The notes under the pieces: generated by a model | Told to the model about the DNA's origin: nothing | What the model saw: the letters and a program-made list of their open reading frames with translations, nothing else | The model's database searches: none | In this document: piece after piece, positions 5,421-47,788 of the stretch | Layout: each line of letters opens with the position of its first letter | How positions within the stretch are numbered: the stretch's first letter is position 1 | Assembly: GCF_004010195.1 (NCBI RefSeq) | Contig: NC_057758.1 | Location: 7,979,717 to 8,034,265, forward strand | DNA from: Chiloscyllium plagiosum | Lineage: Eukaryota | Reading direction: 5' to 3' | DNA: 54,549 nucleotides | Program-made: the position numbers and the translations under genes

Positions 5421-6110
5421 NNNNNNNNNNNNNNNNNNNNNNNNNNNNNNNNNNNNNNNNNNNNNNNNNNNNNNNNNNNNNNNNNNNNNNNNNNNNNNNN
5501 NNNNNNNNNNNNNNNNNNNNNNNNNNNNNNNNNNNNNNNNNNNNNNNNNNNNNNNNNNNNNNNNNNNNNNNNNNNNNNGGAGATCATCTCCGAGACACAT
5601 GCACAAAGTCNNNNNNNNNNNNNNNNNNNNNNNNNNNNNNNNNNNNNNNNNNNNNNNNNNNNNNNNNNNNNNNNNNNNNNNNNNNNNNNNNNNNNNNNNN
5701 NNNNNNNNNNNNNNNNNNNNNNNNNNNNNNNNNNNNNNNNNNNNNNNNNNNNNNNNNNNNNNNNNNNNNNNNNNNNNNNNNNNNNNNNNNNNNNNNNNNN
5801 NNNNNNNNNNNNNNNNNNNNNNNNNNNNNNNNNNNNNNNNNNNNNNNNNNNNNNNNNNNNNNNNNNNNNNNNNNNNNNNNNNNNNNNNNNNNNNNNNNNN
5901 NNNNNNNNNNNNNNNNNNNNNNNNNNNNNNNNNNNNNNNNNNNNNNNNNNNNNNNNNNNNNNNNNNNNNNNNNNNNNNNNNNNNNNNNNNNNNNNNNNNN
6001 NNNNNNNNNNNNNNNNNNNNNNNNNNNNNNNNNNNNNNNNNNNNNNNNNNNNNNNNNNNNNNNNNNNNNNNNNNNNNNNNNNNNNNNNNNNNNNNNNNNN
6101 NNNNNNNNNN
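5421..6110. other. Assembly gaps (N runs 5421-5578 and 5611-6110)
   Basis: N runs flanked by poly-C and CT/CA low-complexity sequence. Confidence 1.
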
Positions 6111-9195: not shown

Positions 9196-12100
9196 ATGAA
9201 TAAAGACACTGAAATTGAAACACTAAGTAAGCTATTTCCAGGAGCATGAAATAATATCGTTAAGTTTTCTGAAAAACGATAGAAGAACGAAGGATTTTTT
9301 AACTAAATGGCCGAAGAGAGTACTTTTGACGTAAATATGTGCGATGAAATGGAAGGATTAATTCAGAATTATAGACATAGGATAATTCAAAGAACAGAAT
9401 ACTGAAGTGAGAAGACGAGGTGGAAACCTTCAAGCTGTTGAAGGAGAGGAGTGGCAGAAAGTTTGTCAGGCATTAGTTGCAACTGATGGAGGTGCCAGAG
9501 AGGAGAATAAGCAATTTCTGTGCACAAAGGCTGGGGATGAAATCATGTCCCCGTGCTCAGTGCAGAACAAAGAGCCTTCATATATGGAGGCCCAGCAGGG
9601 ACAGCAAGTTTTATATCGCACGGTGGAAGACTTAGAAACCTCCCTCCCCCGCTATTTAGGTGAGCAAAATGTAACCCACTGTTCCTTAATGGGCTGTGCA
9701 ATACCGCTCTATGGGAAGTTGAATTGGGAAAAAAGCCTACATTGAACAGAATGTATTAAGAATAAAACTAGAGAAAAACTAGAGAAACAGACGAGGAGGC
9801 AACAGAATTAGAAGCTATTGATTGTAAAGAGAGAGATTGCGAGGGGAAATTCAGAAGCTATGCAGGTTAACAGAAGGAAGGGATTAGGAGACATACTTAA
9901 ATCATAGTAGGGATGTTAGGCAGAAACAGTCGGAGAGTGATAGGGGAGTGACCCGGGAAGGAAAGATTAGGAGGCAGTAGTGTGATCAGGAAAATTAGCC
10001 TGAACAGAACAAGCGGAAAAAAAGAATATCAAGATATAGAATTAGTTTGAAGTGGAATCTGATGAGAATTTACAATGTAGCAGCTTTAATAATGGCAAGA
10101 CAACCCCACCTGGGAACATATTGCCTTTGATTATAAAAGGGTGAAGACAGCCACAATACATTCCTTGTGGAGCCCAGGAACTGGAAGAGCTGATGAATGT
10201 GTTGAGAAGTTGACATAATGGGCAGGAAAGTGAATTACAGCCATTGAGGACGAAACCACAGAACGGTTCCTTGCATTGGGGGATTTGAAGGTACTGCTAA
10301 TAAAGGTAGTGGGACTATCGCAACTAAGAGAGATAATAAACTGCGCACGCTTGAAAAATGTAGTGGATAATCCGATGTTTGATGATGCTGGGTTTGATCG
10401 AGTCAGACAGAATGCATACCTGGCACGTGGAGATTGTTATACGCCTAATATTGATCCTTAAGGTTGAACAGAGACTCCACTCGGATACACTGAAAACCCG
10501 GCAGCTTATTTGGAAAACCAGTTGAAAACGTGGAGGCTTGAAACAAAAAAAAATCTGCAAGATAGTCAGCTGTTGAACACAATGTTCTGGACTGCTTTGT
10601 TGAAGCAATCTCCCCTCAAGTCAAATCTAAGTTAGAGGAGGTAGATGGTCTGACTTACATGGCAGCCAGGAATTCCGAGGTTACGCAATCCGAACGTTCA
10701 AAAGACTTGTGTGAAAGACAAGAAGATGCTGGTGGAACAGCAGGAGGAAGTGCAAAGAAATTTGACACTACTGCAGCTCCAGGAACTTAAAAAGAACGAG
10801 AGAGAGAAAAACACTGTTGCCAGTTACAACGGGATTGATTGTCGGCAAGTATGATGAGTAATATGGTGCTCCAGGAAAAACCATCTAAAGCTACCTGGCA
10901 AGGGCCAGAAAATGCTCATCAGATAATAAACATTTTTGGAGAGACTTTTCCACAGTTACCATACCAAGAGCAAAATGAATTTAAAACTTTGGGGCGAGAG
11001 TGGGGGTGGGGGTGGGTGGGAGGGGGCCGGGAGAGAGTGGAGCAAAGTGTATGGCGAGAAGTCAGATACAGAGAGGATCAGGACTTGTGTGTTGGGGGTC
11101 TTGTGACCCATGCCATTTAAGACGAAATTGCTCTTACTGGCCCTGGCCCTTCAGGTCCCAAGTTGGACCAATGAGTCAGAAAGGTCCGGCTGTCCTGCCA
11201 CAAATTCCTACAGGTTCGAGGGAACCTGTAAATCTGTATATGATGTGTTCGGATTGCCCAGAGAACCCGAGTGAGAAGGGGCAATATCCTGTGATAACGC
11301 AGGAAGCTGAACATGATACTTTTGTCCAGGTTAGTATCGAAGAAGGGTTGAGGCCTATGATGATAGATACTGGAGCTACGTATATTTGTGTTAAACCGCA
11401 TATGCCTCGCACCTTCCCACTTTAGGTACATGGTGCTGATGTGGGGAGAGTGAAATCACCGAATCCAGTAGAAATAAGATTAAAACCGGGGGCACTTTTG
11501 AGAAAAAATCTCAGTATCCTTGGATAGCTGAGGCAACAACAGCACAGGGAGTGTTGGAATCAGGAGTATTTAGGGAAACATGCAGCCCGTGTAATACTCA
11601 TTTGCGGCCTGTTGCAAGAAGTGGATAAGTCTAAATTTTCATAACATTGTACATCATTTTATGGCAGTTGTGTAAGATTGGCTAGCATTTGTTCCAAACC
11701 CACATTCTTTGCTAACATATGTACTACCGGCAGGACATTGGTTTTCAGTGATTGACTTGTGCACAGCTGCCTTTAGTCTTCCACTGGCAATATTTGTTCG
11801 TTTTTATGTACAGGGCAAGGCAGTATCCTTATAATCTAACGCCACAGGGGATTAAGCATTTGCCACATATATTTATTCAGGTGTTGAAGATGGATCTGGA
11901 GATTCTGCCATTGGACAGAACATTAATACAGTATGTTGATGATTTGTGAGTTTGCTTTTACAGTCAACGGTGAGCGTGAAACCACATCTATTCTGGAAAG
12001 CTTGGCCTGTGTTGGTCATAAGATGGCTAGGCAGAAGCTACAATGCTGTAAGCAGCTTACTGAGGATTTGGGTAGGCTTATATCGAAGTGAAGTAACGTG

Positions 12101-22165: not shown

Positions 22166-22835
22166 AAATGAAGTATCACTTCCTCTATCAACCGTGGTAA
22201 AGACAATAAGACATGAAGAAATATCGTCCATTTGGCCCATAAAAGCTGCTCTGCTCATTAGCAGGATCATGATTTCAACCTATTATTATGTCATCTGCAT
22301 TTTTGGCAACAGGACGTTCACTTCCTTGGTACAAGTTATTAATGCTGTGCGTCTCCGAACTTCTGAAGCTTCACAGACGCCTGAGATGCGGTGGCCCTCA
22401 GATTAAACCAACACATAAGGTTAAACATTCCTTCTGAAAAGTTAGTATTTCTTTCAAAGTTTACCTGTGAAGCAGAAACTGTTGCCATCCTGTCTGAAAC
22501 TTTCTCAAGCTGCTGGGAATCTGGGTCCCAATGTTTTGGCAACGTGAGTGATTTTCTCAGTGTCAGCAGGAAACGAAATCGCCAAATACTTTCCATAACT
22601 AAAGAAAAATACCTAGTTCGAAAATGCAGTTATTTTACTCAAACCTTCACACTTCTCACATAATACAGTTGAGTGTCTCTTTACACTAATAAATAACTGT
22701 CCTGGCAGAAACACTTAGTCTTTGATTTTGTTTCAGTGAGTGAACTGTTTTGTGAATGAGCACAAGGTGTATTTAATCCTCCAAGTTCATCTGTGATCAT
22801 TAACTACAGAACGGCCTCTCTTTTCTGATACACAG

Positions 22836-22976
22836 CCTCGGTGTTCCAATCGTTCCTGCAGGACTCTGAGGACTTTCGCAGCAGAATGGTGAAAGCAGTG
22901 CTTTGGCTCCTCGTCGTTCTCGTGTTTGTCGATTCAATCACTGCTGATGAAAGACTGATTCCAAGGTTTATATTCG
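22836..22976 (+). CDS. Beta-defensin-like gene, signal-peptide exon (5' UTR 22836-22885; CDS 22886-22976)
   Basis: Acceptor ctctcttttctgatacacAG (22835); ATG at 22886 gives MVKAVLWLLVVLVFVDSITADERLIPRFIF plus G; donor G|GTAAGT at 22977 (phase 1); basic N-terminus, hydrophobic core and I-T-A cleavage-type motif. Confidence 0.85.
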
Positions 22977-23269
22977 GTAAGTATATGTCTGCAAAACCAT
23001 CACCAGGTGCATGATGAGGCCATTGACGTCTTCCAGTGCGTGGTTTTACGAAATTCGATCTTTAATACTATGCGACTTCACTCATTTGAATTTCATACCA
23101 AAGAGCATTCGATCCTAAATTGTTGCATTGTGAATACGCCAGTAGCAAGTGGAGAACGAGGGAAGTCCTACTCTTTGTCTTTGTTTTCCTGAGGCTAATG
23201 CAGATTCTGTCCATTCTGCAGTGAGTAAGCGCTCTGTATTCAGAAGGTTATATTTTTCGTTTTAAGATA

Positions 23270-23770
23270 TTCATTTGTACAGAGGCAGTTCAAACAATGT
23301 TCACTGTGATTATCTTTGCCATGGAGGGATTATCTCACGCAGAATTATTTCACAGTGTGGACTTCTATTCACTTGAATATACAACAATGGGAGGTAATTT
23401 CATTTTAACACAAGGAATTATGTTTAGAGCGGTCTTGAGGGTAAATGCAGAGGGGACGTATCCACTCAAAAGATAGACAAGGTTCAGATAGCATAGCCTC
23501 AGAATGAAGGAGCACCAATTTAAGACTGCGATATGGGCGGAAATTTTCTCTCACAAGCTTCGAATTACTTGCCATGGAGAGCTTTCCAGCAAGTTTCCAA
23601 ATTTACAATTAAGGCTAAGAGGGATAGATTTTTGATCAGTCACAGAATGCCTGCCTCTGTGGCAAGGGAAGGTACTTGGATATGAGGTGTGTCGGATCAG
23701 TCGTGATTTTTTGCACGAACAGACTTAAGGGAAGGTGTAGCCTACTCCTGTTCCTTTTTGTTATGGTCTT
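23270..23770 (+). mobile_element. Old CR1 3' fragment in the defensin intron
   Basis: Degenerate RT C-terminus and cctactcctgttcct..ttatggtcttat tail. Confidence 0.65.
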
Positions 23771-23899
23771 ATAGATGAGAATGTATTTCAGTGGACAATG
23801 TACCAATTCGTTCCAGTAATGAGGACCAGTCCACTCAGCTCCTCGAAGCAGTATATTGCTGATTGTGTTGCATCTCACTTGCAGCAGCAGTTTGCACAA

Positions 23900-25115
23900 T
23901 TACAGTCGTACAAACCTGATCGAGTTCATTGTCGAAATGGCAAAGAGGATTGCTGAGTGCACATCGGTAGGCATGATAGATATGGACTTCAGTCAGGCAC
24001 TAGACAAGGTTACCCATGGGAGAAAGATTAGCAAGGTTCGATCTTATGGAATACATGGAGAACTCGCCATTGGATACAGAACTGTCTCAAAGAGAGATGA
24101 CAGAATGAGATAGAGGAGGGCTGTTTTTCAAACTGGAGACCAGTGACAAGTGGAGTGCCACAATAATCGATGTTGGGTCAGCTATGTTTCGTCATTTATA
24201 TAAATGATTTGTATGTGAATTTAAGAGTTATAGTTAGTATGTTTGCGAATGACACCAAAATTGGAGGTGTGGTGAACAGCGAAGAAGATTACCTCGGATT
24301 GTAATGGAATCTTGAACAGATGAGTCTTTTGGCTGAGGAGAGGCAGATGCTGTTTAATTTATATAATTAGAATGTGCTCCATTTTGGGAAAACAAATGTT
24401 AGCACGACTTATACACTTAATGATAAGGTCCTCGGTAGTGTTGCTGAAAGAATAGAACTTGAAATGCAGGTTTATAGATTCTTGAAAGTCGGATGAAAGG
24501 TAGATAGGTTAGTGAAGAAGGCGTATGGTATGCTTTCCTTTATTGGTCAGAGTATTGATTTGATTAAAGGGATTGTAAGGTCATGTTGCACTGTACAGGA
24601 CATTGGTTCGGCTAGTTTTGGAATATTGCGTGTAATTCTGTTCTCCTTCCTACTGGATGGATGTTGTGAACCTTGAAAGCATTCAAAACAAAATTTACAA
24701 GGACGTTGCCAGGGTTGGAGGTTTTGCGCTCGAAGAAGAGGTTGAATAGTCGCGGGCTGTTTTTTTCCTTGAGCATCGCAGGCTGGGGCGCGACGTCATG
24801 GGAATTTATAAAATCATAAGGGATCTTGATAGGGTAAATAGACAAGGGGAAAGATATAATAGAGAACTAAGTGGTAACTTGTTCATGCAGTGGGTGGTGC
24901 GTGCGTGGAAAGAGTTGCAAGATGAAGTGGTGGAGGCTAGCACAATTGCAACATCTGAAAGATTTCTGGATGGGTTTATGAATAAGACGGGTTTGGAAGG
25001 ATATGGGCCGGATACTAGCAGTTGGGACTAGATTGGTATGGAACATCTGGTCAGCATGGACGAATTCGACCGAAGTGTCTGTTTCCATGCTGTACATCTC
25101 TTTGACTTTATGACT
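23900..25115 (+). mobile_element. HER1/CR1 LINE 3' part (RT) in the defensin intron
   Basis: DMDFSQALDKVTHG; SGVPQ; FANDTK; QWVVRAWKELQDEVVEA; tail gtttccatgctgtacatctctttgactttatgact. Confidence 0.9.
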
Positions 25116-25247
25116 CGATACACATTCGAGAGGTCACTCTTGGAGCACTGTACACAGTTCTCCCCTCTCACCACTTGATGACGACGAGCTCGAAGGCCAA
25201 ACTACTGTCAGGCACTGTACATAACTACACACGTTGGTAGGCTCTAT

Positions 25248-25498
25248 ATTAGAGTGGTGCTGGAAAAGCACAGCAGTTCAGGCAGCATCGGAGGAGCAGT
25301 AAAATCGACGGTTCGGGCAAAAGCCCTTTATCAGGATTACAGACAGAGAGCCTGAAAGGTGGAGAGATAAGTCACTTACCTCTCCATCCTTCACGCTCTC
25401 TGCCTGTGTTCCTGATGAAGGGCTTTTGCCCGAAACGTCGATTTTACTGCTCCTCGGATGCTGCCTGAACTGTTGTGTTTTTCCAGCACCACTCTAAT
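25248..25498. mobile_element. Palindromic Penelope-derived non-autonomous element (inverted pLTR pair)
   Basis: attagagtggtgctggaaaagcacagcagttcaggcagcatc... is the reverse complement of ...gatgctgcctgaactgttgtgtttttccagcaccactctaat; arms ~120 bp. Confidence 0.85.
25405..25445 (+). ncRNA. Minimal hammerhead ribozyme core (Penelope-type)
   Basis: CTGATGA (25412-25418), A, GGGC-TTTT-GCCC stem II, GAAA, then CGTC with a GUC cleavage triplet. Confidence 0.7.
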
Positions 25499-25704
25499 CT
25501 CGACTCTGCTTTCCAGTATCTGCACTCATTGTTTTTACCGCACTTTGGTTAACCCGACAACTCGGGAATCAGCTACAATCATTAAATCATTAGTTAGATA
25601 TCTCCCCGAGGGAATATTTGAAATGGTTCAGTTGTCGGTACCAGCCTAGATGCTCGAGGGTCCTGAACGATGGCATGGTCTATATCTTCCTTTCTATTTC
25701 ACAG

Positions 25705-25871
25705 GATGCCAAGCAGGGAGCTGCAGGCAGCACCGATGCAATAAAGGTGAGAAGACGGTTCCTTTCAGATGTTTCTGGATTTTCAAGTGCTGCGAGTCAA
25801 AAAAGAGCTTCATAACGGGAACACCTCCGAGTAAAAAATTGACTAAAACTGTGAAGGAGACTCACTTTTGA
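25705..25871 (+). CDS. Beta-defensin-like gene, mature-peptide (last) exon
   Basis: Acceptor ttcctttctatttcacAG (25704); phase-1 join gives G-CQAGSCRQHRCNKGEKTVPFRCFWIFKCC-ESKKSFITGTPPSKKLTKTVKETHF*; spacing C-x4-C-x4-C-x10-C-x5-CC with G-x-C before C2 and Glu in the C3-C4 loop. Confidence 0.88.
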
Positions 25872-25943
25872 TTTCTCGAATTCAGGCTATGCTCCATTGA
25901 TCAATATCACGATCCATTCGCCCTCTCCTTTCTGAAAGATAGG

Positions 25944-25949
25944 AATAAA
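25944..25949 (+). promoter_or_regulatory. Polyadenylation signal of the defensin-like gene
   Basis: AATAAA 72 nt after the stop codon, with T-rich sequence downstream. Confidence 0.65.
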
Positions 25950-26444
25950 ACGCACTGCATTGATCACCACCTCTTGACCATCTCTCTTTTTGAACTTTGA
26001 TTATTTTATCTCACTGTAGTCTGGGAGGGACGGGATATCCGAAAAAATACCTGCCCAAGCTGATATTTTGTAGGTCGCATACAGACATCCTCTGGTAATC
26101 ATACCTTACGCCAATGTCCTGATCACCTCCACCACCGTCCCTGGGGATAACATCCCCCATTGGCAGCACATACCAAAAAGAGACAAATAAAAGAGAACAT
26201 AGAAGTGTGAGATTCAGCGGGGCGTGTTCGTCTCGGGATTTTCCCAAGCGTATTAGATCCTCACTCACCAAGCTGACAAAGGTCAAGAAAGTGGAGGGTG
26301 AATTTGAGGGAGATACTAAATGTTGAAATTGAATGATTCATCCCTGTCAGGTCCCGTTATCCAACGTTGTCTCACAGTAGGGGAAGCTGGGTCCGATTTG
26401 TGTTACAAGCAAAATAACATGGACGAAAATGAACATATTTTAAG

Positions 26445-31110: not shown

Positions 31111-31610
31111 NNNNNNNNNNNNNNNNNNNNNNNNNNNNNNNNNNNNNNNNNNNNNNNNNNNNNNNNNNNNNNNNNNNNNNNNNNNNNNNNNNNNNNNNNN
31201 NNNNNNNNNNNNNNNNNNNNNNNNNNNNNNNNNNNNNNNNNNNNNNNNNNNNNNNNNNNNNNNNNNNNNNNNNNNNNNNNNNNNNNNNNNNNNNNNNNNN
31301 NNNNNNNNNNNNNNNNNNNNNNNNNNNNNNNNNNNNNNNNNNNNNNNNNNNNNNNNNNNNNNNNNNNNNNNNNNNNNNNNNNNNNNNNNNNNNNNNNNNN
31401 NNNNNNNNNNNNNNNNNNNNNNNNNNNNNNNNNNNNNNNNNNNNNNNNNNNNNNNNNNNNNNNNNNNNNNNNNNNNNNNNNNNNNNNNNNNNNNNNNNNN
31501 NNNNNNNNNNNNNNNNNNNNNNNNNNNNNNNNNNNNNNNNNNNNNNNNNNNNNNNNNNNNNNNNNNNNNNNNNNNNNNNNNNNNNNNNNNNNNNNNNNNN
31601 NNNNNNNNNN
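31111..31610. other. Assembly gap (500 N)
   Basis: N run. Confidence 1.
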
Positions 31611-47197: not shown

Positions 47198-47788
47198 CTG
47201 GCAGGAAGAGTTTAATTCAGATAAATGCGAGGTGCTGCATTTTGGGAAAGCAAATCTTAGCAGGACTTATACACTTAATGATAAGGTCCTGGGGAGTGTT
47301 GCTGAACAAAGAGACCTTGGAGTGCAGGTTCATAGCTCCTTGAAAGTGTAGTCGCAGATAGATAGGATAGTGAAGAAGGTGTTTGGTATGCTTTCCTTTA
47401 TTAGTCAGAGTATTGAGNNNNNNNNNNNNNNNNGAAGGACATGGATAGGGTAAATAGGCAAAGTCTTTTCCCAGGGATTGGGGAGTCCAGAACTAGAGGG
47501 CATAGGTTTAGGGTGAGAGGGGAAAGGTATAAAAGAGACCTAAGGGGCAACTGTTTCACACTGAGGGTGTTACATGTATGGAATGAGCTACCAGAGGAAG
47601 TGGTGGAGGCTGGTAAAATTGCAACATTTAAGAGGCATCTGGATGGGTATATGAATAGGAAGGGTTTGGAGGGATACGGGCCAGATGCAGGCAGGTGGGT
47701 CTAAATTGTGTTGAGATATCTGGTCAGCATGGACGGGTTGGACCGAAGGGTCTGTTTCCATACTGTATATTTCTATGACTCTATGACC
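47198..47788 (+). mobile_element. HER1/CR1 3' fragment containing a 16-N gap (47418-47433)
   Basis: FNSDKCEVLHFGKAN..QRDLGVQVHSSLKV; VWNELPEEVVEA..FKRHLDGYMNR. Confidence 0.9.

Follow-up and report, generated by a model that had tools for sequence, protein, structure and literature searches.

Gene Layout and Encoded Peptide

The window, the whole stretch of 54,549 nucleotides of Chiloscyllium plagiosum DNA that was analysed, harbors what reads as an intact two-exon gene; its predicted product is a six-cysteine beta-defensin-family peptide that would be secreted. The features of the locus are as follows.

22792..22804, + strand: conserved upstream element with an ATTAAC core, 87 nt 5′ of the ATG
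22827..22832, + strand: TATA-box position of the family, degenerate here (GATACA)
22886-22976, + strand: predicted exon 1, 91 nt, with ATG at 22886 and donor G/GTAAGT, phase 1
22886..22945, + strand: residues 1-20 within exon 1, a predicted signal peptide judged by a hydropathy peak and likeness to paralogues
22946..22976, + strand: part of exon 1, short acidic pro-piece with an Arg-Phe junction and three hydrophobic residues
22977..25704, + strand: predicted phase-1 GT...AG intron, 2728 nt, from its splice signals
25705-25871, + strand: predicted exon 2, acceptor a pyrimidine tract and CAG ending at 25704
25705..25793, + strand: part of exon 2, six-cysteine core, C-x4-C-x4-C-x10-C-x5-CC
25794..25871, + strand: tail of 25 residues, Lys/Thr/Ser-rich, with stop
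25803..25806, + strand: position of the ancestral stop, lost here; three older sisters have one base fewer
25869-25871, + strand: stop codon TGA, closing the spliced frame
25944..25949, + strand: polyadenylation signal AATAAA, shared in alignment by two older sisters and by paralogues

Joined in phase 1, exons 22886-22976 and 25705-25871 give a stop-free frame of 85 codons, the splice of 22976 to 25705 being a prediction from the DNA alone. The two-exon, phase-1 layout given in the preliminary description was verified in every element: both exons, donor, acceptor, open frame and AATAAA. The acceptor lies only 2 nt from Cys1, and high-copy repeats fill the intron from about 23997 to 25647, with depths of 10^3-10^6 in three DNA-like sequencing runs. 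Neither the window nor 39 kb of its flank yielded a second defensin gene.

Hydropathy peaks at 3.5 in residues 5-13, inside the putative signal peptide. At the DNA level, the signal part of exon 1 is about 70% identical to the first exons of paralogues at C49:7.86 Mb, C49:5.71 Mb and C101900. Most of the paralogue first exons compared encode Arg and then a hydrophobic residue at a similar position, and the Arg-Phe junction of the pro-piece may be the maturation site. The core has Gly-x-Cys2, a Glu in the C3-C4 loop and a net charge of +5; the described pattern of six cysteines ending in CC, with GxC before the second and an acidic loop residue, is present, here closing as x5-CC. Recomputation also reproduced the reported net charge of +9 (14 K/R against 5 D/E beyond residue 20). 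About half of it (+4) lies in the tail, in which 8 of 25 residues are Ser or Thr and pLDDT is mostly below 50 in the structure model.

Close Copies and Constraint

Five other contigs each carry both exons in the same order, separated by 2.6-3.4 kb, with 92-96% identity. These are not merely alleles, because six versions in one assembly exceed what two alleles allow. Across residues 21-60 (pro-piece and core), the five open-frame copies show no amino-acid change where 7.7 would be expected (P 0.0003), in a comparison of closely related sequences where local gene conversion could mimic part of the effect. None of the 120-nt non-coding windows is equally conserved (0/3478 sliding, 0/29 non-overlapping). 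The pro-piece varies at 0 of 31 sites, and the core at one of 89, synonymously; the signal part has four amino-acid-changing sites, which is the neutral rate. The deficit of changes indicates that pro-piece and core are kept by selection. The pseudogene copy C97797 does carry changes in the region of residues 21-60.

The donor is identical in four of the five close copies, while the polyadenylation signal is altered in two of the five, both open-frame, one of which also has an altered donor. Pseudogenes occur elsewhere in this short-spacing lineage: in addition to C97797, they comprise the older sisters C49:0.38 Mb, C49:3.31 Mb and C11194.

Of 12 paralogue first exons examined, 11 have an ATTAA(C/T) element 78-89 nt 5′ of the ATG. 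This gene has it too, and the element presumably resembles an HNF1/homeodomain site. TATAAA or TATAA is found 53-61 nt 5′ of the ATG in 10 of 15 paralogues, and GATACA occupies this position in our gene and in all four close copies aligned. Since the close copies share both the decayed TATA box and the tail, the core was still being constrained once these two changes had arisen.

An Unusual Member of a Large Family

The canonical paralogues (for example C49:5.71 Mb, C49:7.72 Mb, C49:7.86 Mb and C101976) have the same layout, upstream element, polyadenylation position and C2-to-C6 spacing as this gene, and amino-acid identity is 23-58% over a 26-residue stretch ending at Cys6. They differ at both ends. 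The C1-C2 spacing is 4 here and 6 (C-x6-C) in 40 of 40 other motif-passing paralogue sequences, and among 44 motif-passing sequences spacing 4 is confined to this clade. Relative to the canonical paralogues, 12 nt are missing 5′ of Cys1, where their acceptor mostly lies 14 nt upstream, and 6 nt are missing between Cys1 and Cys2. After the terminal CC, 21 of the 40 have 3 residues, compared with 25 in this gene. The gene is thus one odd member of a large family in this genome, with a shortened front end and a new tail.

The C49:5.71/7.86 Mb clade is the nearest to this gene in exon 1, at the end of the intron and in 3′ untranslated DNA; in the core, other clades are nearer. A chimeric origin was considered and set aside, as grouping the core with the C49:5.71/7.86 Mb clade is not rejected (p-AU 0.29).

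In the alignment, the three older sisters all stop at 25803..25806. One extra base abolished this ancestral stop and produced the 25-residue tail, 22 residues of which are read from ancestral 3′ untranslated DNA. Among the five open-frame copies 5 of 78 tail sites vary, all changing the residue; the 5 changes seen against 4.7 expected correspond to the neutral rate, and positive selection on the tail was rejected on the same count.

Assignment to the Beta-Defensin Family

The window contains a single instance of the six-cysteine pattern. Of 100 order-3 Markov simulations, 11 matched it as well, so by itself it is weak evidence. Two profiles were made from paralogues outside this clade. The protein profile, built from 34 other family peptides, found this exon at E 2.6e-8, with the next best of 1835 six-frame segments at 0.31, and the DNA profile found it at E 1.1e-10, with the next best at 0.85. 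At E 0.01 or better, PF00711 (Defensin_beta; best E 8.9e-6) and PF13841 each match 9 of 32 aligned family members. The Pfam comparison proposed in the preliminary description supports the family assignment through the paralogues. The peptide itself matched no family in a direct Pfam search and no sequence in the PDB; a PF13841 search across the whole genome gave nothing above its cut-off. The top four PDB matches to the family profile are beta-defensins (E 0.04-0.25). A separate Atlas match, "beta-defensin 121" (score 0.75), is a lead only.

A model of the core (pLDDT 80.7) has three strands (5-7, 15-18 and 27-31) in the three-stranded antiparallel defensin fold, and no helix. It superimposes on human beta-defensin-1 at an rmsd of 1.2 A over 29 residues with a weak Z of 3.8; alpha-defensins overlay it equally well, and with Z below 4 throughout these scores do not separate alpha from beta. 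Foldseek with the core model returned mostly defensins, all weak at E 2 or more, and a wide fold search with the first model gave nearly all defensin-type folds at Z of only 2.0-2.6. Cys1 of the core model aligns with residue 5 of human beta-defensin-1, which we take to be its Cys1, and all six cysteines align with those of the canonical paralogues. Beta-defensins pair Cys1-5, Cys2-4 and Cys3-6, and the register of the overlay with human beta-defensin-1 agrees with such a pairing.

The broad beta-defensin motif is C-X4-8-C-X3-5-C-X9-13-C-X4-7-CC (PMC515299), within which the spacing here, 4-4-10-5, falls with its first interval at the lower bound. The strict consensus, C-X6-C-X(3-5)-C-X(8-10)-C-X6-CC, has many exceptions reported by its source (PMC6716921); our gene departs from it in the first interval (4) and the last (5), the latter also being 5 in 40 of 40 canonical paralogue sequences. 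The strict consensus is the typical form and not the boundary of the family. A phase-1 intron preceding the cysteine region is a further beta-defensin feature (PMC7203481), and one is predicted directly 5′ of it here. With paralogues that match Pfam, a profile E of 2.6e-8 and a defensin-type fold in the model, the proposed beta-defensin assignment is upheld.

Expression Data, Context and Other Species

Four sequencing runs were compared with positions 22600-26400. Contigs of runs X1, X2 and X3 continue through intron DNA and behave as DNA; one X1 contig spans 22896-22979, with 33 unplaced letters. The 22976-to-25705 joint was absent among the 15 joints listed, beyond which another 202 exist. 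The single-cell RNA run X5, of which about 2 in 100 was read, has zero depth over both exons. The suggested MHC linkage finds no support: the chromosome-scale MHC class I matches are all on C37, with 0 of 50 on C49.

A search for exon 2 homologues in other species gave no candidate, and alignment A1 gave three candidates, none scoring. A representative-protein search returned two matches. One, repetitive in sequence, was judged spurious; the other is a protein of 334 residues with six-cysteine repeats in tandem. Titles and abstract openings in mostly open-access literature yielded no report of a chondrichthyan defensin. The part of a 2019 review that treats antimicrobial peptides of cartilaginous fish names transferrin, squalamine and kenojeinin I, and no defensin (PMC6795676).

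Function and Alternative Explanations

We favor, with somewhat better than even confidence, a functional gene of the beta-defensin family, whose product would be secreted for host defence and whose tail would be a passenger. The host-defence function is inferred from the family, and the mechanism is probably ordinary defensin biology. The signal peptide would direct the precursor to the secretory path, and the acidic pro-piece could be cleaved after Arg27, leaving a mature peptide of about 58 residues with cysteines 1-5, 2-4 and 3-6 paired. This peptide is predicted to fold into a defensin core of three strands locked by disulfides, the tail being disordered. At a mucosal or glandular surface, the cationic core (+5) with exposed Phe and Trp may bind to microbes through their anionic membranes or wall precursors; the peptide may also attract immune cells. 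The recent tail would add charge or be trimmed off, and would be dispensable for activity.

A precedent for other roles exists. Passages of two papers describe many beta-defensins acting in reproduction, those of mammals being mainly epididymal and affecting sperm (PMC4577578, PMC3812073). It is conceivable, if unlikely, that the gene is expressed with a main job other than killing, its product coating sperm, egg case or gland or serving as a receptor ligand, with the Ser/Thr- and Lys-rich tail glycosylated or used as a surface tether, as in tailed mammalian epididymal defensins. A core fully conserved from copy to copy is more in keeping with a fixed host partner than with an arms race, and nearly a third of the tail is Ser or Thr; however, the neutral rate of change in the tail counts against a tail-based role, and the core is cationic and aromatic. 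Improbable in our view is a silent or nearly silent copy or clade, a young birth-and-death duplicate that lost its TATA box and stop and has yet to decay. Degenerate TATA, pseudogene sisters (with C97797) and altered polyadenylation or donor signals in two open-frame copies do speak against a working gene, but the constraint on the core postdates the TATA and tail changes shared by the close copies, and this copy retains an intact donor, acceptor, upstream element and polyadenylation signal. We give very little credence to a change of chemistry through the short C1-C2 interval, whether a defensin sheet lacking the N-terminal helix, another cysteine pairing, or a ligand of ion channels or enzymes. 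Such a change would suit the restriction of spacing 4 to this clade, the helix missing from the model, and the scores of beta-defensins, which are no better than those of alpha-defensins and sea-anemone defensin-fold peptides; yet Cys1 registers with that of human beta-defensin-1 in the 1.2 A overlay, all six cysteines align with the canonical paralogues, spacing 4 is within the published range, and the absent helix may stem from the model starting at Cys1.

Implications

The beta-defensin family itself is known; what is new here is the C1-C2 spacing of 4 and a tail gained by stop-codon loss. One possibility, which we hold tentatively and with some doubt, is that this cartilaginous fish has a very large, two-exon, clustered, tetrapod-type beta-defensin radiation that we did not find in print. 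Jawed vertebrates would then have had large clusters ancestrally, the few three-exon genes of teleosts would be a derived condition, and the expressed lineage described here would have been trimmed to the most compact beta-type core and have just gained a cationic tail from 3′ untranslated DNA. Alongside at least 40 further motif-passing sequences, a constrained beta-defensin gene would close the defensin gap in cartilaginous fish, and would bear on the timing of vertebrate defensin clusters and of the two-exon layout. On the tentative reading above, living copies and dead sisters bracket the trimming and the tail gain, making the birth of the tail and its effect on activity directly testable. 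The locus is a natural experiment on minimum Cys1-Cys2 length and on the effect of a stop-loss tail on killing, salt tolerance and binding, with a peptide short enough for synthesis.

Comparison with Known Defensins

Invertebrate big defensins (6qbk, 8bgk) and mammalian alpha-defensins (HNP4 1zmm, cryptdin-4) have the same trans-defensin sheet as the core model. Big defensins also share the phase-1 intron before the cysteine region, but are defined by an N-terminal hydrophobic domain before the beta-defensin-like domain (PMC7203481). This assignment was rejected: the domain is absent, with three hydrophobic residues only, and just 11 residues separate the predicted signal from Cys1. The alpha-defensin motif, C-X1-C-X3-4-C-X9-C-X6-10-CC (PMC515299), was likewise rejected, the first interval being 4 and not 1.

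Teleost beta-defensins are likewise fish peptides with a six-cysteine mature part preceded by a signal peptide, the latter predicted in our gene. Their genes have three exons, with the cysteines split 4+2, and those of seabream and seabass are not clustered (PMC11541337), whereas this gene has two exons.

The tetrapod reference set comprised PF00711, PF13841, human beta-defensin-1 (2nlb/2nlq), hBD-2 (1fd3), 5ki9, chicken AvBD2 (2lg6) and spheniscin-2 (1ut3). Unlike these, the gene has a spacing of 4-4-10-5 rather than the strict 6-(3-5)-(8-10)-6, a peptide with no Pfam match, and a tail newly read from 3′ untranslated DNA; nor was a cathepsin-type (papain-family, cathepsin B type) flank found on C49 (0 of 119 matches listed, with 150 of 187 candidates scored). 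It shares with tetrapod beta-defensins a predicted signal exon and a single exon with all six cysteines, the predicted phase-1 intron, Gly-x-Cys2, the loop Glu, the terminal CC, a cationic character and the three-stranded core, modelled here. Also shared is a large clustered family with pseudogenes, as illustrated by the 66 beta-defensin genes of the Komodo dragon (PMC6716921).

Gene structure and homology evidence

The exon and intron boundaries proposed in the preliminary description are borne out by the window DNA, in which exons 1 and 2 join into 85 codons.

22886-22976: exon 1, 91 nt, starting with ATG at 22886 and ending in the donor signal G/GTAAGT
ending at 25704: acceptor of the intron, a pyrimidine tract followed by CAG
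25705-25871: exon 2
25869-25871: stop codon TGA, closing the joined frame
25944: AATAAA, downstream of the TGA

A count of residues likewise gives the net charge of +9 past residue 20 that had been claimed. The six-cysteine pattern alone is weak evidence, since it was found in 11 of 100 simulated windows. However, a DNA profile of 41 other family sequences matches exon 2 at E 1.1e-10, and a peptide profile of 34 unique other family peptides does so at E 2.6e-8, with no other family-profile match below E 0.3 in the window. The homology evidence is strong, and on sequence grounds we regard this as a real, constrained gene.

The remainder of the window looks like repeats: a Pfam scan of 14 longer frames gave one match, a retroelement endonuclease. 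A 146-residue stop-to-stop frame at 10985-11425 (+) is without a Pfam match and carries a motif that we take to be that of a retroelement-type aspartyl protease. Within the intron, 25251-25527 is a high-copy element that matches other loci on both strands and is therefore palindromic, like a miniature inverted-repeat element. Assembly gaps (5421-5578, 5611-6110, 31111-31610 and 47418-47433; 1174 N in total) leave the gene untouched.

Distribution of the family

The 3.56-Gb genome was searched with three single-peptide seeds. At a cut-off of E 10 two of them found 77 and 52 matches, and at E 1e-4 the third found 73, in overlapping lists whose weak rows include chance matches. Applied to the loci retrieved, a motif filter let through 44 distinct exon-2 sequences; it permitted only spacings of 4-6 (C1-C2), 4 (C2-C3), 9-10 (C3-C4) and 5-6 (C4-C5). 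The spacing is 6-4-10-5 in 40 of these, some of which may be haplotype duplicates or pseudogenes, and 4-4-10-5 in the other four, which form the clade of the gene under study. Members are spread over 0.38 to 8.0 Mb of C49, the contig on which the window occupies 7979717-8034265, and over C39, C43, C46, C50 and many small contigs. The proposed check against Pfam beta-defensin models succeeded for the family, with PF00711 and PF13841 each matching 9 of 32 aligned members, but the peptide under study matches neither. The family profile retrieved beta-defensins as its top four PDB entries (E 0.04-0.25), and Atlas placed the peptide (0.75) and one paralogue (0.87) in beta-defensin clusters, both as leads only. 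No relatives were returned from the protein collections searched.

One canonical-spacing clade is scattered over C6, C7, C8, C11, C16, C23, C32, C38, C39, C48 and many small contigs (L077-L083, L095, L106-L110). A cut-off of E 1e-4 gives 73 matches to it, many of them 84-95% identical. Its copies on C23, C38 and C8 have several kb of flank in common at 88-94%, beside a locally repeated unit. A filter search of about 13 kb upstream turned up no convincing signal exon, so these copies may consist of exon 2 alone, carried along by a unit that is mobile or was segmentally duplicated. In L047/L064 (C74664), L061, L062 and L063 the 3′ untranslated DNA holds a further Cys-rich frame, about 60 nt beyond the last core cysteine, that ends in CC and overlaps the poly(A) signal. 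This frame may have arisen by chance or be what is left of a double-domain defensin. Exon 1 of L021, L022, L025 and L031-L034 encodes an extra unpaired cysteine in the pro-piece, directly before the Arg-rich junction, that could lead to covalent dimers or retention. Tandem exon-2 copies lie 383 nt apart at L085 (C46, 3.86 Mb), and tandem exon-1 copies (L073/L038) are separated by 786 nt on C97797 and by about 1.26 kb on C101900. The family profile also matches P0004, a protein of 334 residues made up in part of six tandem copies of a six-Cys repeat that ends in CxCC (E 3.6e-5). Papain-family (cathepsin) exons are strongly expanded in the same assembly, with at least 119 matches, many clustered on C31 and C8 and others on small contigs.

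Close copies and constraint

Both exons are present at 92-96% identity on C99810, C88610, C88212, C96604 and C97797, while C13721 carries exon 1 alone. The blocks shared among close copies span 9885 to 31110 of the window, and we therefore attribute them to recent segmental duplication. The variation count covers five open-frame copies and excludes the one on C97797, whose frame is interrupted by stops at codons 7 and 59. Across these five, 7.9% of non-coding sites differ (285 of 3597), as against one of 120 sites in residues 21-60, a synonymous one (Fisher P 0.0013). Amino-acid changes in this stretch number 0 against 7.7 expected (P 0.0003), and none of 3478 non-coding windows of 120 nt is as quiet (minimum 3). 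The signal peptide (4 changes, 3.5 expected) and the tail (5, 4.7 expected) change at the neutral rate. These counts establish constraint on the core within the limits of five related copies, five masked core bases in C88212 and possible gene conversion.

A trimmed front and a new tail

In most paralogues the acceptor lies 14 nt before Cys1 and six residues separate Cys1 from Cys2; in the gene under study these figures are 2 nt and four residues. The trimmed start is common to three older sister copies (C49 at 0.38 and 3.31 Mb, and C11194; about 67-72% identical), all of them broken, and the trimming is thus old. The frame stops at the fourth codon after CC in all three relics and in 21 of the 40 canonical paralogues. 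In this clade one extra base at that site lets the frame run on for 22 residues, drawn from DNA that aligns with the 3′ untranslated region of the relics, with the position of the poly(A) signal kept. This alignment establishes the origin of the tail, which was therefore gained after the trimming but before the most recent duplications. We attach more value to the family as a whole, and to the dated gain of the tail, than to this one gene.

Predicted fold and function

The 33-residue core, modelled with a 32-sequence alignment, is predicted to form three strands (pLDDT 80.7); with the tail included, pLDDT is mostly under 50 past residue ~36. Almost every Foldseek match is an alpha- or beta-defensin, though none has an E-value below 2. 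With a second aligner the alpha-defensin HNP4 (Z 3.9, rmsd 1.7 Å over 30 residues) and human beta-defensin-1 (Z 3.8, 1.2 Å over 29 residues) tie, and the modelled core is defensin-like.

The most likely product, in our judgement, is a secreted host-defence peptide. By analogy with established beta-defensin biology, the signal peptide would be removed, the acidic pro-piece cleaved after Arg27 and three disulfides formed; the cationic aromatic core would then act on microbial membranes, and the tail would be a mere passenger. We think it unlikely, though possible, that the role is a reproductive or receptor one. Less probable still is a silent young duplicate. Of 15 paralogues, 10 have a TATA box 53-61 nt upstream of the ATG; this clade has GATACA there, which makes strong expression less likely. 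This gene and 11 of 12 paralogues retain an ATTAAC element 78-89 nt upstream. The altered box is common to four close copies, yet their cores stayed constrained, so that some expression after the change appears the simpler reading. In three samples, DNA-like runs cover the region of exon 2, with one similar in sequence to this copy and two carrying C99810-type variants; one of the three may be the assembly source. That the short first Cys interval altered the chemistry of the peptide seems very improbable, and a host-defence peptide is the reading we prefer.

Comparison with known defensins

We file the gene, from its sequence, as an atypical member of the beta-defensin family; alpha-defensin and big defensin identities were rejected. 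The suggested MHC linkage found no counterpart, there being no MHC class I match on C49. MHC class I genes elsewhere in the genome identify it as that of a jawed vertebrate, with 'shark' an inference of the preliminary description. A literature search for defensins of sharks and cartilaginous fish, mostly outside subscription journals, found no paper on them: the passages of PMC6795676, with its section 14, name no shark defensin, in those of PMC10707392 defensin appears only in a reference, and those of PMC13337447 hold nothing on shark defensins. The peptide fits the broad beta-defensin motif in PMC515299, and the gene follows the phase-1 intron rule of PMC7203481, in passages that make no mention of sharks. 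It departs from the strict consensus in PMC6716921, which the same paper calls often broken. Teleost beta-defensin genes, as described in part of PMC11541337, have a three-exon layout, whereas the gene under study has two exons.
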